A stretch of DNA of 64,000 bases from contig CAXXFF010000002.1 in assembly GCA_963676835.2 (NCBI GenBank), positions 1,088,001 through 1,152,000 of the forward strand. Direction: 5' to 3'. The position numbers are program-made. This DNA is from Marispirochaeta sp. Lineage in GTDB: Bacteria; Spirochaetota; Spirochaetia; JC444; Marispirochaetaceae. Positions 39,001 to 45,000 of the stretch are shown piece by piece; position 1 is the stretch's first letter; each line of letters opens with the position of its first letter.

Positions 39001-42000
39001 GTTCTGCTGCGGGATGTCCGGGCTGAAGTGATTGAAAAGACAGACGGGAAACAGACTCCCTGGACTTCGTCATCCCTGATTACTCCCTTCTATTTTGCAG
39101 ATTCCGCCCTGATCCTCTCCCGCATAGCTGCCCGTAAAGAGGCGGTTTCCGCAGAGCTTGTTACGATCAACGGTGAGATTGAACGACTTACCAGGGCACG
39201 CAATTCTGCTGTCTCGGATTCTGAACGCAGAAAGCTTGAGCTCGAGCAGAATGCCCAGGCTGCAAAACTGGAAGCCGCCCGTCTTGAGGCTGAACAGCTG
39301 CAGCAGGAAGAAGCACGGCAGAAGCTTGAGGCGGAGCAGCGGGCTAAAGAAGAGGCTGCCAGAACCCGGGCCCTGGAAGAGGAAAGGTCTCAGCAGGCGA
39401 ATCTTCTCGCGGAAGCTGAGCAGAAGCGGAAGGAGATGGAATCCCTGAAGCAGGCGGGAGAAGATCCTGATCTGCTTCTGGATAACATCCATTCCCTGGA
39501 GGAGGCGATTAAGGATATTGAACGCTCCTTCAATTCGGCCTGGTCTGCAATATCCCGTGAAATATCTTCTACTTATCAGCTGAAAAAAGAAGCTGTTGAT
39601 ACCATTGAAATGGACCCCTGGGAGAGTGATGCGGAGTTTAATGAACGCATCGGGAAGCTGAAAAACAACCTCACTACCCAGGAGCGTAGTGAGCTATCCA
39701 GTCGCCGTGTTTCCCATGATAAAAGCCTGGAGGAACAGCTTGCAGACCTGAAGCGCCGTCTGTCAGAGGCTGTCCGTTCTCTGGAGACAAAACGCTGGAC
39801 CCTTTCCGGCAGCGAAGTAAATCTGACACCCTATGATTTTAACCGGGATACCAAAGAGTGGGCATTCTGTGTTGAATCGCTCGAGCGCTCGGTGCCCTTT
39901 AAAACTGTTCTTTCAGTCTCGTTGGCCGAAGCGGAAGACCTGCGTACTGCGTATCAGATTATTGATACTGCAATTAAAAGCTCTGCCCTGTCGGGCAGGA
40001 TAGAATATGCCTACGATCACCGGACTGAGTATTCCGGTTCTGTTTCCATGTATGATCTGCAGGTAAAATCTGTACGAATAATTGATCTGCTGGATAACAA
40101 CAGCATTGTTGTTCAGGATAACGCCTCTACAATTATCAGCACCTTTGGAGGTATTGATCAGCGGAAAGAGCCGCTAAACCGGTTTTCCAATATACGATTC
40201 TGGTGCAGTGATACTCAGCTTGATGTCTATTATAAAGGTGCCTTACTTGGTACGACCCCCTTCAGTACCAATCTGTTTCTGGAGGGACAGTATCCACTGC
40301 TGTTAAAGACAAAAAACGGAAAGACTCCCGGAGGCACCCGGGTTGTACAGGTTCCCGGAGGATCAAATAGAAGTGTCCAATTGGAAACTCCCTTTGTGTA
40401 TGTGCAGGGAGGGTTCTTCAAGATGGGGGACCCCCGGGGATCTGCGGATGAAAAACCGGAGCATAGTGTATATGTTTCTTCTTTTATAATGGCCAAATAC
40501 GAACTTACAAAAGGCCTACAGCATGAAGTATTGGGAAGGTATGGCTCGGTGAGCGAAGCAGACCGTGAAAAGCCTGCCACCTATATTTCCTGGATTGATG
40601 CTCTTGAATTCTGCAATAAACTGAGTAATCAGGAAGGGCTGGAACCTGTGTATACCGTCAATGGCAGTTATGTGCATTGGGATAAAGATAAAAACGGTTA
40701 CCGGCTGCCAACAGAAGCTGAATGGGAATATGCTGCCAGGGGCGGTGCGTTGAAGGATGATGTAAATTACTCCGGCAGCAGTGATTTAGGCATTGTCGGT
40801 TGGTATAAAAATAATAGTCACGAACAGCTTCAACCCGTGGGGCGGAAGAGGCCCAACGGCTTGGGGCTCTATGATATGAGCGGTAATGTCTGGGAGTGGT
40901 GCTGGGATCGATATGGAGAATATACTTCTTCCACCGCTTCGGATCCTCAGGGGCCCTATTCCGGTGACAGCCGGGTACTTCGAGGCGGGGATTATAATCA
41001 GAGTGCCTCCTATTGTGATGTATATAACAGGTACGATAAAGAACCGGGAGAGCGGTCCACCACAATAGGCCTGCGGCTGGTGCGGAATGCGGAGTAGCTT
41101 AACCTGACACGTTCAGAACATGACTGGAGCTGTCGGTAATTCGTCGAGCTGCAAATGGCAGTTCTGCGTGTAAATAGAGAATAAATTTTTTTAATCAATC
41201 TTTTTCCCACTGACTGAAATATATGCCGGAGTACGGAACCAAAGCTGCCGTGGGGAGACGCAATATATCAGGAGAAGATTATATGAATATAACAGATGTG
41301 AAGGAAAGTATTAAAGCATTAAAGAATCCGGATCTTGATATTGGCGTTCTTGAGAAAAAGATGAGCGAAATTGCTCAGTTTTTTCATACAAACGGGGCGC
41401 CGGATAATAATGAAATCTTTTCCTGGTTCGGCGACCTTGTTCCACAGTATGCAGTGAGTGACACTGACAGCTGCACCAGGCTGAAGGATATTTTCGGCGA
41501 AATATTTTCCCGACGGGGATCACGGCGGGAGCGCAGGCTAAGGCTTCGTGAGCTTGAGGCTCTTCTCGATTTTTATCGCCGCTACAGTTCCGCCTCTACG
41601 GCTCTATTTGAATGGCTTAACGAAAACGGTGAGGGCGGGTTGGATATCAGCAGCCTGAATCACGAACTCTTCAGTATAGAAGAGGGAACAGAATCAGACC
41701 TGCAGGCTGGTTTCCTTTCTCTCCTGGCAGAACTATCACCCCGCTTTTCTGTAGAATGGATAGAGCAGATGCAGGCTCTGCCTGTACAGGGGAAACTCAC
41801 CCTCCTTGAGCTGCCACCGCTTGAGGAGCTGACCGGCATACTGTTTGAGCTTCAGAATAGAGCTCGAAGGGAGGGCTTACTTGCTTTGGAGGATGTTCTG
41901 GAGCAACTGCCGCCGCTGTTAACCGCTTTTTTCCGGCTGGTAGTGGACGGGACACCCCCGGACCTTCTCGATTCAGGTATGGACCGATATTTTTCCAGCC

Positions 42001-45000
42001 TGGAACGGCGACTGAATGAGTATCAGGAGATTGTTGCCGATGGGGCGCAGATGGTTGCGAAAGGGATAAACCGGATGGTAATCGAAGAGCTCTGCCGGAA
42101 GCCTTCAATGCTCAACCTGTTTTCCAGTCCCGATGAGGCTGCTTCGATGGAGGGCGGCGCCAGGAACGGTTCTGGTTTGAATAGTGAACAGGATTCTATC
42201 ATCAATATTCTGATTTCAATGGCAGATGTCACACGGAGGGAAGGTTTGCTGGCTCTGCAGTGGTTCCCCACAGAGGGGCTGCCCGATGCATTAATAAACC
42301 TGCCCGAAATAATCCTCGAGTGTGCTGATGATTCAGATTTGTTAGGCTATATGCTCGCCAGGATCTTCTCTCAACTTAAAGATACTCTCTTTCATGCCAA
42401 AATGATTACCACCAGTATGATCCGGATTATCTATCAGGGGGAAAGCCCGTCTGCTTCGGAGGATCTTTTTAAGATTATCTCCGGCAGGACTGAAGGGACA
42501 GCCGGATTTTCCGGTATAGCGGATATGGTGGTGGATTGTGTGCGGAACAGTGAGCAGCCTTTTCAGCTCCTGCTCCATCTGCAGGATTACTGTACTGCTG
42601 CAGCCGACTATGCGGGAGCACTGCGGCGTTTAAGCCATATGGCAGAGGATAAAGAACTAACGGCACTTTTAACAGCGCAAATTGAAGAGCATGGAGCCTC
42701 TTTTCCCTCTCTGGTAAGAGATAGGAAAGCCCAGCTAATTTGTATTAACGGTGAAGAAGAGGCTTCCCTCAGGCGTATAGAAATGCAGATTAATACGTAT
42801 AAGATTGAACAGGATAAACGTGATGCGGAAAAAACACCCGCATTGGAGAATCTTCATCTGATTGCAGATGCGGAAAAACTGGAGCAGTTTTCCCTTTTTC
42901 TACTGGAGAGTTATGCCCGCCGGCAGCAGGAGCAGGAGAGAGTTTTTTCTGAGTTAAGGAATGCGGAAAGAGCCCGGATACAGACCGCCGCCGGAGAGAT
43001 CTTCGGCCGGGAATTACCGGTTTTTGAATTTACCGGTGAGGATACAGAAATTACCTATGCAGAAAAACTCTTTCCCCGCAGCCGTGTGGGGATGGCGGCA
43101 CTTATTCGTGATCGATTTTCCGATGAGGACGTGCAGAATCTTCTGGCAAAGATGACTGTGTTTAATGATGTTCTGCTGCTGAATGATCGCGATATGCAGA
43201 AGCTGCTGCGGGAGCTAGCCATTGAAGATCTCGCTCTTGCTTTAAAAGGGGCCGACGAAGAGGTTGTTGAAAAGTTCTACAGGAATATCTCGCAGAGAGC
43301 AGCCGCCGTCCTTCAGGAAGAAATGGTGTATATGGGTCCTGTTGCGGTTACGAAGGTTCGGGAGGCTCAGGATCGCATACTTCAGATTTTGCAGAAGCTT
43401 GAAGAGCAGGGTGAAATTACACTCCCCTGCCCGGAAGGTGAAGGATGGGTGTAGTGCCCTGACAACGGCGGAGTCAGGGGATGCCATTTCGACTCCCTGA
43501 AAGGTTTTGAAAACTTCTATACATTCACATCAAACCAGAACGCCGCCGCTTCCTGCTCAATCCCGGCTGTCATCCCACGCCATATCGCGCCGTACTGCAT
43601 CTTCTCCGCGGCAAACTCCATGTTCAGTTCATTTGTCAGCCGGAAGACGCGGTATTCTCCGGGATCATGTTCACCGGTCAGGTTATTGCGTATTATCCTG
43701 GGTACATACAGCGGGGCGTCGCCGTCAATAAGGTGATATTCGCCGTACCCGGGAATCCCTGGTCCTGCAGCGCTGTCATTTGCCCTGAAGACTGTATCCA
43801 GAATGGGTTGCAAGGTTTCATCCGGCAGTTCCTGCTCCATCAGCCACTCATAGGCCATTCTGTTGGCTGCAGCTTCTTCAAGCCGGCAGAAGTATCCGGC
43901 CTTGTCCGCATGCATGTGGCTGCAGGCATCGTTGCCAAGCACTGTTTCCATAAAAGTGTGGAATAGTTCATGCACTGCAATTGAGCGTATAAGGGGCTCT
44001 ATACTCTCTCTATCCAGGCCTTGTCTGTGAATCAGTTCTATTATTCTGACTGCATTGAAGTATATTCCCGAGCGGTGCTTACGTTCATTGTCCAGGGAGC
44101 AACGCAGCAGATAGCAGGCGAAATAATCGGCGGTTTCTTCCGGGCCGGTTTTATCAAAAACTATCGGTTCCCTGCCTGCAGGTTCGCTCTTCAGCCGGTT
44201 GAGTATGGTTCCTATCTGGCCGGTAGATTCTGCAGCCCGTAATTTTCTGGGGTCCGGGCCTTCAAAAATTTCCCGTATCATCTGGTGCTTCCGGCTGGGG
44301 TCTTTTCCCGGTTCCGGGCTGCTCATTTGTTCAGCTTTCTCTGCAGATAGAGCCCGGGCTTTCTCCAGGGACTCTTCCAATGCGGAACTTCCGGCGGTGC
44401 TCTGTTTAAAAAGAGATACCACCTCCGACAGACTTAAGGGCCCCGGCTGGCGTGGTGATACCGGGGGCTGTTCCGGCTTTTCCGGTTCTGCCGGAATAAG
44501 CGGTTCTGCTGCTGCCGGGTCTTTTTGCCCGGGTAAATCAAGGGTGCTTTTCATGGTAAAGGTGGTCAGCCCTTTTATGTCTGGAGGCGCTTCGGGAGCT
44601 TTAAGGTCTGCCAGAACGCTGTTTTCTTCTTTGAATCCAGCAAGAAAACCAAGGAGTTCATGGTCTTCCTTTTTTTCAGCCTCCTCTCTCAATGCTTTTG
44701 CCAGTCTGTAGGCGACGTTTGGAGGTTGACAGGCTTCTAAGAGGCCTGTCAGTCCGTCGAGGTTGAAAAATCCGCCGTCCTTTCCATCTTCACCTTTTTC
44801 TTCCTGAATAAAGGATTTGAGAGATCCGAAGTTGATTCGGAACTTCCTGTCCTCCTCGGAAATGTCTTTTCCACTGGCAAAGGGGTTGCTTGTGGCTGGA
44901 TTGTCCTGCAGGGTGGCTCTCATTTTGTTCTGGCAGGATTCAAGTGAGTAGCCCGTCCGTTCCGCGGTGAGCAGAATATCAGTGCCTAATAGCTTTACAT

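Follow-up and report, generated by a model that had tools for sequence, protein, structure and literature searches.

A soluble Marispirochaeta protein that joins two MotA-like stator heads to a FliG torque domain

Introduction

The contact between stator and rotor of the flagellar motor is transient, and an engineered MotA-FliG_C fusion was needed to trap it for structure determination (PMC11302681; PDB 8ucs). According to that report, FliG_C contacts MotA only between two adjacent cytoplasmic domains, so that it is gripped by two heads, and the fusion is membrane-bound, pentameric and man-made. A second report describes a stator cleft in which one subunit supplies a basic face (R88/K89/R232) and its neighbour an acidic one (E96/D114) (PMC10374538). 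Stators are uncoupled from the rotor by EpsE, MotI, YcgR, FlgZ (PMC9039648) and FtgA (PMC11522434); these comprise a glycosyltransferase, regulators that respond to c-di-GMP and a protein of the chemotaxis cluster. Borrelia FliG1 and FliG2, which are FliG homologues, show that spirochaetes have additional FliG-type proteins with special roles (PMC7225975).

Here the gene for a 723-aa protein was analysed within a 64,000-nt window of a Marispirochaeta genome. A PilZ or glycosyltransferase domain is typical of EpsE, MotI, YcgR and FlgZ, and we know of no clutch or brake among these proteins and FtgA that mimics MotA or FliG. The 723-aa protein had neither domain in Pfam and NCBIfam scans. It shares with MotA/PomA (PF01618; NF005997, NF006527; PDB 8ucs, 6ysf, 8bri) the H1-H4 bundle, the motifs and most rotor-facing charges, but it lacks TM1-TM4, and hence an ion path or MotB site, and carries two heads on one soluble chain. 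With FliG (TIGR00207; PF01706; PDB 1qc7, 3usw, 8umx) it shares the C-terminal torque-helix domain, but not FliG_N, which binds FliF, or FliG_M with its EHPQ motif, which binds FliM. Like the engineered fusion it holds both partners on one chain; unlike it, the protein is natural and soluble, with its heads in tandem.

Results

The gene is real and intact, with a stop-free frame over all 723 codons, and the chimera that it encodes is more complete than the survey's finding had claimed. The start Met falls in the alignment column at which the relatives P0003, P0014, P0020 and P0023 also start. Promoter and terminator scans found nothing 5' of the gene on its own strand. GC3 was ordinary and codon adaptation lay at the 8th percentile. 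An alternative in-frame ATG at 41223 would give a 743-aa product. An assembly chimera was ruled out, since run X1, which is possibly the source, gave a single contig over 37198-51118 with even depth and zero differences across the gene, and run X2, from a separate study, gave pieces at 41312-41675 and 41699-41945 at low depth.

Table 1. Features of the 723-aa gene and its surroundings (window coordinates)
Feature	Coordinates	Strand	Remark
10.2-kb block with the 723-aa gene	39191..49417		missing from same-genus genome G556
Shine-Dalgarno-like AGGAGA	41270..41275	+	7 nt 5' of the ATG at 41283
723-aa soluble protein gene	41283..43454	+	N-domain, M1, M2, helical stalk, FliG_C
N-terminal helical region, residues 1-165	41283..41777	+	no known family; low model confidence
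M1, residues 183-272	41829..42098	+	MotA cytoplasmic bundle minus TM3-TM4 hairpin
Flexible linker, residues 274-299	42102..42179	+	pLDDT <50 in full model
M2, residues 305-399	42195..42479	+	second, decayed MotA-bundle copy
Helical/coiled-coil stalk, residues 413-574	42519..43004	+	common to long subfamily; no known family
Three-helix unit, residues 583-622	43029..43148	+	superposes on FliG segment preceding torque subdomain
FliG C-terminal torque subdomain, residues 623-714	43149..43424	+	Pfam and charges

The previously noted likeness to the cytoplasmic loop of MotA (38% over 78 aa to the organism's own MotA) was found to extend to the C-terminal tail. Each repeat is an entire MotA cytoplasmic bundle, in which MotA 77-141 is fused directly to MotA 210-245 and the TM3-TM4 hairpin is removed; the two-piece match recurred on the solved MotA chain 8ucs_C (80-142 and 219-247). 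The presence of two repeats was borne out by their mutual identity (30% over 81 aa, E 2e-4) and by a profile built without the protein and its six closest relatives. On M1 this profile scored 54.8 bits, its positions 3-92 falling on residues 184-271, and on M2 it scored 16.9 bits; the best shuffles gave 5.0 and 11.8, respectively, and none of the 1000 reached either score. Judged from its sequence, M2 is a genuine repeat that has decayed considerably, and its branch in the tree is very long (2.22). A model of residues 175-405 reached a pLDDT of 88.1 (approximately 90 for each repeat), and when it was searched against 48,161 chains the top six matches were all MotA/PomA (Z 11.9-15.6; next, 6.6). 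The protein had no PF01618 match, and its best score on the curated MotA family models was 34.5 bits against a cut-off of 340. Membrane helices were absent, the highest 19-mer hydropathy being 1.16 compared to 2.53 in MotA, which upholds the solubility claimed before.

M1 retains four of the five rotor-facing charges, namely R195, R196, E203 and D222, the equivalents by motif of PomA R88, K89, E96 and D114. M2 retains a partial set: R318 and R319 are kept, Q326 stands at the E96 equivalent, and the DG motif is gone, with E346 in the D114 column. The R232 equivalent is missing from the protein. Among 125 M domains the equivalents of R88, E96, D114 and R232 were present in 92, 95, 102 and 47, counts that are biased upward because the MotA motif served as the seed of the profile; each was present in 47 of 48 canonical MotA proteins. 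Within the long subfamily the E96 equivalent occurred in 7/7 first and 2/7 second repeats and the R88 equivalent in 3/7 and 6/7, a face split that depends on seven related sequences; over 20 two-repeat proteins the split was weak (repeat 1 versus 2: E96 equivalent, 17 versus 13; R88 equivalent, 15 versus 17).

At the C-terminus, FliG_C was the sole Pfam match of the protein, as reported earlier (PF01706, residues 615-714, E 3.6e-30, 104.9 bits), and identity to the organism's own FliG was 52% over 92 aa; in DNA, the FliG part matched the organism's own fliG at only 67% over 150 nt. Structure comparison widened the likeness to residues 583-714. The FliG profile match begins only at residue 620, and the preceding three-helix unit, which we take to be ARM_C-like, was visible by structure rather than by profile. 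The whole region superposed on residues 205-335 of 3usw (Z 15.9, rmsd 2.8, 129 aligned). On the curated FliG family model the protein reached 102.9 bits, below the cut-off of 226.7, and Pfam, NCBIfam, profile and motif checks detected neither FliG_N nor FliG_M with EHPQ. A FliM-N-like peptide also was absent, and an Atlas search with the stalk (residues 400-610) gave no usable match. The FliG tip retains four of five torque charges (K655, R672, E679 and E680). The R297 equivalent is lost, with A688 at a position where 39/39 canonical FliG proteins have Arg; it was kept in 30 of 76 family FliG_C domains.

In contrast to the survey's finding, which described an orphan with one distant relative and no full-length match, profile searches run without a word index revealed P0003 (691 aa), which aligned over residues 52-714 (33%, E 1.5e-70), and five further proteins of the same layout (P0004, P0006, P0007, P0014 and P0023). 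These relatives were only 23-30% identical in the alignment. A word-index search with the long alignment gave only four proteins, missing P0003 as well as the other aligned relatives, and this accounts for the discrepancy. A membrane-less M domain was joined to FliG_C in 37 of 149 other top matches; the family is defined by this combination, and the 723-aa protein has it as a contiguous 95-aa MotA loop-plus-tail domain with no membrane helix and FliG_C attached. Members occur patchily in spirochaetes, Defluviitaleaceae and Latescibacterota. Among 80 proteins, 51 had one M copy, 20 had two, four had three, one had four and four had five; none exceeded five, the number of subunits in the MotA ring. 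FliG_C also was present in 26 of 37 locus proteins found via the M domain alone, and several of the remaining 11 were truncated by a locus or contig end. M and FliG_C stand in either order, with partners that include LRR, TPR, AraC and Sel1 and, frequently, further pieces of the motor (FliM and FliG_M, for example). A third motor part, a FliM-N-like peptide, occurred in 6/80 proteins. Gene neighbours vary, some members lie in LRR-rich, duplicated arrays, and a Treponema plasmid carries a 56-aa fragment among family copies.

No Pfam model covers the M domain, and a literature search, for which most subscription papers were out of reach, returned no description of the family. The M + FliG_C family is widespread and apparently undescribed. 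The first five non-spirochaete carriers checked all had flagellin, FliG and MotA. One carrier, G435, encodes a G-M-M protein that begins like a signal peptide and has lost charges, and its genome gave no match to flagellin, FlhA, rod proteins, FliM/N, canonical FliG or MotA.

LIC10244 (NCBIfam NF047717), which is conserved in pathogenic Leptospira, is by sequence comparison a degenerate member of the family. It likewise is soluble and combines M with a FliG_C-like part, but has 252 aa, a single M and no remaining torque motifs or charges. All 11 proteins tested matched the M profile (23-32 bits) and the G profile (19-24 bits), with hhalign values of 95% and 78%. Purifying selection was evident (median dN/dS 0.07 over 54 pairs; 1 of 55 was not computable); other relatives gave 0.18 and 0.26, and the L033/L163 pair was saturated. 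Expression of LIC10244, a highly transcribed hypothetical protein, was 6.6-fold PerRA/B-dependent in host-like growth. Shorter members, P0067 and G150:C24 among them, provide the link; the likeness of the long subfamily to the LIC10244 profile is weak (18%), and the 723-aa protein did not match the NF047717 model at E 0.01 (cut-off 475 bits), nor did any protein of its own genome.

The host genome also encodes canonical fliG, a second fliG and motA, as previously stated, together with fliM/N. None of the window's long ORFs is a flagellar gene. A caspase-FGE gene and an orphan neighbour the 723-aa gene, there is no adjacent motB, and the surrounding island contains PIN/VapC-like toxin-antitoxin pairs and further orphans. 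The absence of a same-genus counterpart held: the full-span domain was found in 0/5 genomes and the gene was missing from all five. In G556 a caspase-domain gene is truncated at the left junction of the missing block, and this genome seems to have lost the block by deletion. No repeat or cassette elements were found beside the gene or the block junctions. The suggestion of a recent invention or import was not sustained, given the divergence of the same-layout relatives, the low DNA identity of the FliG part to the organism's own fliG, the ordinary GC3 and the deletion-like gap in G556.

Other origins also were considered. Repeated origin of the M domain was not supported: the free tree takes three changes, but a single clade was acceptable (p-AU 0.89). 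The FliG_C tree does not resolve the place of the protein. With alignment A2, canonical FliG from 301 genomes crowded out the other matches. A loose DNA pattern returned 30 loci, comprising nine true M domains, two canonical motA genes and 19 chance matches. A phage origin was rejected, with 0/107 IMG/VR pattern loci and two partial matches in a phage collection, using patterns that catch only part of the family.

Discussion

Sequence, model and fold search all support the view that one soluble protein bears the two surfaces of the rotor-stator contact, and it retains most of the charges used in torque contact. Our leading reading, held tentatively, is that the two repeats rebuild a two-subunit pincer on the FliG torque helix, which closes on its own FliG tip or acts as a clutch-like decoy that competes at the motor. 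The protein would then be an unpowered, single-chain copy of the flagellar torque contact. M1 and M2 are predicted to fold as two MotA cytoplasmic bundles, and together they may rebuild the cleft between neighbouring stator subunits, with the acidic face coming chiefly from M1 and the basic face from M2. At rest the pincer would most likely be shut on the FliG tip of the same chain or of a second copy; when open, it could cap rotor FliG tips, while the freed tip could fill stator clefts. Lacking a membrane part and the FliG domains that bind FliF or FliM, the protein cannot make torque; instead, the number of engaged stators might be lowered, an uncoupling of stators from the rotor like that proposed here to match EpsE, MotI, YcgR, FlgZ and FtgA. 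The pincer and decoy reading gains from the ceiling of five M copies, the frequent pairing of M with FliG_C, the FliM-N-like peptides of some members, the host's own motA, fliG and fliM/N and the flagellar genes of the five non-spirochaete carriers; it is opposed by the lack of flagellar genes around the 723-aa gene, the varied neighbours of its relatives, the weaker retention of charges than in real motor parts, the absence from same-genus genomes and the low codon adaptation. The clutch or brake role is hypothetical and is weakened by the G435 carrier, whose genome has no detectable flagellar genes, and by the charge-less LIC10244.

These two cases also favour a strong rival, to which we give a lesser but real chance: a repurposed latch, in which M-M and FliG_C act as an intramolecular clasp or scaffold, guided by charge, to open and close or polymerise the protein in a non-flagellar job whose output passes via the N-domain and stalk. 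LIC10244 keeps both domains under purifying selection though its motifs are lost, and the variable domain order and the LRR, TPR, AraC and Sel1 partners also fit. However, G435 is one of 25 flagellin-negative genomes in its sample, with no completeness stated, four of five genomes picked as MotA-less had flagellin, the 723-aa protein retains most torque charges on both sides, and partner pieces are often other motor parts.

It is improbable that the protein is a near-neutral mosaic, in which part of an old and shuffled gene family drifts within a variable island and has no current function in the host. The patchy presence, the loss from G556, the long M2 branch, the toxin-antitoxin and orphan surroundings, the low codon adaptation and the plasmid fragment would suit such drift; they are opposed by the intact frame, the part order kept in distant relatives, the confident models of both repeats and the low dN/dS values, which all come from relatives. 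More doubtful still is a protective sink that absorbs motor-directed agents (CheY-P, a c-di-GMP brake, a foreign effector or a phage protein), as could be read from the mixing of M and FliG_C with FliM-N-like peptides, the LRR-rich arrays and the caspase-domain genes beside both host M-domain genes, since the protein matches no immunity or defence family, lacks such a peptide and has its M domain in none of the 107 viral pattern loci.

Returning to the pincer and decoy reading, a wider version, which we regard as speculative and less likely than not, is that several phyla encode motor regulators that act by mimicry. Each would be a soluble single chain of one to five stator heads, the highest number equalling a complete MotA ring, that is latched to the FliG tip it carries; its opening would free a decoy for both sides of the contact. 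The 723-aa protein would be a minimal two-head pincer and LIC10244 a diverged branch, switched on via PerRA/PerRB in host-like conditions.

As a natural, soluble, single-chain version of the contact, the protein would serve directly as a reagent to establish the affinity, stoichiometry and charge rules of this interaction. Should it act on motors, it would represent a new means of flagellum disengagement, through mimicry instead of a c-di-GMP receptor; otherwise, motor parts may have been recycled as a general latch. Either way, the work provides a domain outside the Pfam models and the first structural reading of LIC10244.

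Domain structure of the 723-aa protein

FliG_C at residues 615-714 was confirmed as the sole Pfam match of the 723-aa protein, and the likeness to FliG was upheld in the own-genome search (52% over 92 aa to the organism's own FliG, 40% to its second FliG). By structure this likeness spanned residues 583-714 (3usw, Z 15.9, rmsd 2.8); by profile it began only at 620. FliG_N, FliG_M and EHPQ were not found in the protein.

The likeness to MotA claimed in the survey's finding was reproduced, with the organism's own MotA matched at 38% over 78 aa in the own-genome search. A profile of 96 positions (M), built up from the repeats of related proteins, matched repeat 1 (M1) in a single piece (183-271, 68 bits) and, more weakly, repeat 2 (M2; 306-393, 17.6 bits). 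It matched the own MotA in two separate pieces (77-141 and 210-245), and likewise the solved MotA 8ucs_C (80-142 and 219-247). The gap between the two MotA pieces, missing in the 723-aa protein, comprised 68 residues, which from established MotA topology we take to be the TM3-TM4 hairpin. When the protein and its six closest relatives were removed from the profile, M1 scored 54.8 bits compared to 5.0 for the best shuffle, and M2 16.9 bits compared to 11.8. AlphaFold2 predicted the same five-helix pattern in both repeats, with one long helix crossing the junction. The six best matches of the model of residues 175-405 (pLDDT 88.1) among 48,161 chains were all MotA or PomA (Z 11.9-15.6), followed by ExbB at 6.6. 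The H1-H4 bundle, the part of MotA retained in the repeats, is described as the torque-generating region (PMC10374538, in excerpt).

In the motor, two adjacent MotA heads hold FliG_C in a pincer (PMC11302681, a preprint, in excerpt), one supplying R88, K89 and R232 and the other E96 and D114 (PMC10374538, in excerpt). With positions assigned by motif spacing, M1 retained R195, R196, E203 and D222, and M2 retained R318 and R319, with Q326 replacing E96 and the DG motif gone; the R232 equivalent was kept in neither. The FliG tip retained the equivalents of K264, R281, D288 and D289, with alanine in place of R297 (E. coli FliG numbering). In seven long relatives the E96 position was kept in repeat 1 by all seven and R88 by three, whereas in repeat 2 R88 was kept by six and E96 by two. 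This difference fits M1 as a putative acidic face and M2 as a putative basic face, in sequences that are few and related. Across 20 two-repeat proteins the trend was weak (E96 in 17 first and 13 second repeats; R88 in 15 and 17). Family-wide, the charges were retained in about three of four domains, a count biased upward by the seeding of the M profile, compared to 98-100% in real motor parts.

A family of soluble proteins with MotA-like and FliG_C domains

The protein had been described as an orphan, a claim that failed: P0003 aligned over residues 52-714 at 33%, and P0004, P0006, P0007, P0014 and P0023 shared its layout. A search of 1.84 billion representative proteins listed 150 matches, one being the 723-aa protein itself; an M-type match and FliG_C occurred together in 38 of the other 149, or 37 once P0035, a membrane MotA fused to FliG_C, was set aside. 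In a search of 400 other Spirochaetota genomes, the best 150 of 493 matches included full-span ones from at least 14 genomes (nine contributed to the model, five did not). A strict DNA pattern returned 10 loci in genome_contigs, all real: five from spirochaetes, three from Defluviitaleaceae, one from Latescibacterota and one titled Gemmatimonadetes. The phylum of the Latescibacterota record had full-span matches in 17 of 151 genomes. A census of 80 proteins, including some near-copies and some cut by locus ends, gave 26 MG, 14 GM, 10 GMM, 8 M and 4 MMG (N- to C-terminal order; G, FliG_C), and rarer forms reached five M; one of the 80 had a hydrophobic stretch. No Pfam model reached its cut-off on the 14 M domains scanned, and no description of such a family was found in the literature outside subscription papers and bioRxiv supplements. 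Soluble M with FliG_C is a real, undescribed architecture.

The five M repeats of P0018, P0021, P0033 and P0071, the maximum in the census, equal the subunit number of the MotA ring. Natural full membrane-spanning MotA-FliG_C fusions were seen in P0035 and at L199:631-1974 (G401:C53); the latter adjoins FliN-type and FliG-type genes and is similar to the construct engineered for PDB 8ucs. The cultured Treponema saccharophilum carries a duplicated array on plasmid pTS2 (NZ_AP025290.1; L349:3075-10823), all on one strand, in which BspA-type LRR genes accompany three intact M-only genes and a fragment of 56 aa; two of the M-only genes end in a FliM-N-like peptide. In Defluviitaleaceae (L188:844-2178 and L186), an AraC-type DNA-binding domain is joined to M and FliG_C. 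Genomes G401, G402, G448, G468, G522 and G547 each had 10-15 FliG_C and 5-9 flagellin-type matches, a large expansion of motor parts.

The NCBIfam model NF047717 (Leptospira LIC10244) matched two proteins of the family, among them P0067 (residues 9-228, E 7.8e-15), and exceeded its cut-off in 11 of 201 genomes, all 11 of one Leptospira genus (L337-L347). M and FliG_C profiles both scored on all 11 proteins, hhalign gave 95% and 78%, and the torque motifs were absent. As judged by profiles, the LIC10244 family is a degenerate M and FliG_C protein; its profile likeness to the 723-aa protein was weak. Median dN/dS was 0.07 (54 of 55 pairs), indicating purifying selection. In PMC8638967 (in excerpt), LIC10244 is listed as hypothetical and cytoplasmic; in rat peritoneal chambers it drew 40,000-43,000 reads in the wild type compared to 3,000-7,200 in the perRA/B mutant, a 6.61-fold drop (adjusted p 1.3e-19). 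Since LIC10244 is expressed and conserved, the family contains real, selected genes, which says nothing direct about the gene for the 723-aa protein.

The gene and its locus

The gene is preceded by AGGAGA, 7 nt before its start. One contig from a public sequencing run covered it with zero differences, and pieces were present at low depth in a second run from a different study; an assembly join was therefore ruled out.

Features of the locus (window positions)
Feature	Position	Strand	Remark
Three small PIN/VapC-like toxin-antitoxin pairs	34336-35755 and 49732-50447		flank the block; judged by eye
Caspase-domain, coiled-coil and FGE-sulfatase protein	38362-41097	+	signal-like start; truncated in G556
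Gene for the 723-aa protein	41283-43454	+	uninterrupted 723-residue open frame
Three co-directional genes	43517-49258	-	same block as the gene

The minus-strand genes encode an AAA ATPase of two domains, IetA-like though below the cut-off; a protein of 243 aa with a sigma-factor look by eye and no family match; and an orphan of 893 aa containing an HExxH motif. A second own-genome gene, L004:5727-8033 (G000:C2:1243690-1246032), opens a Sel1-repeat protein with a decayed M-like domain (20.5 bits) and has caspase-domain genes on both sides.

The M domain was present in none of five same-genus genomes and in two of 40 relatives. In the same-genus genome G556, the sequence passes directly from window position 39190 to 49418, the ends lack duplication and the caspase-domain gene ends 8 residues past the junction. 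The simplest reading is that the block was deleted in G556; an insertion that completed the caspase gene is a possible alternative. Deletion would place the gene before the G556 split, contrary to the proposed recent invention or import, and identity to the own fliG was only 67% over 150 nt of DNA, which also ruled out a fresh copy of that gene. Its GC3 lay at the 37th percentile and its codon adaptation at the 8th (2036 long ORFs). A single origin of the M domain was not rejected (p-AU 0.89).

Possible function

By sequence and domain content, the 723-aa protein belongs neither to MotA, FliG or NF047717 nor to the known clutches and brakes (EpsE, MotI, YcgR and FlgZ, PMC9039648; FtgA, PMC11522434; both in excerpt); the Borrelia FliG1/FliG2 pair is described in PMC7225975 (in excerpt). 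Tentatively, as the most likely reading, we infer that the M1 and M2 heads would form a pincer shut on the protein's own FliG tip; once open, it would be a clutch-like decoy competing at the motor of the host.

Flagellin was present in four of five genomes chosen for having no clear MotA. In the fifth, G435 (4.9 Mb, completeness not given), one of 25 flagellin-negative genomes in the sample, neither flagellin nor FlhA, rod or FliM/N was matched; its only FliG_C lies in a G-M-M protein (L272:772-1899; G435:C176) with charges lost and a signal-peptide-like start. This carrier, and a window with no flagellar gene found among its long ORFs, count against a motor role. Re-use of such a latch for non-motor work is the next reading, somewhat less likely than the decoy. 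A drifting mosaic is improbable, and a sink for motor-directed proteins slightly more so. The 723-aa protein would work, if at all, like a soluble version of the engineered MotA-FliG_C fusion.
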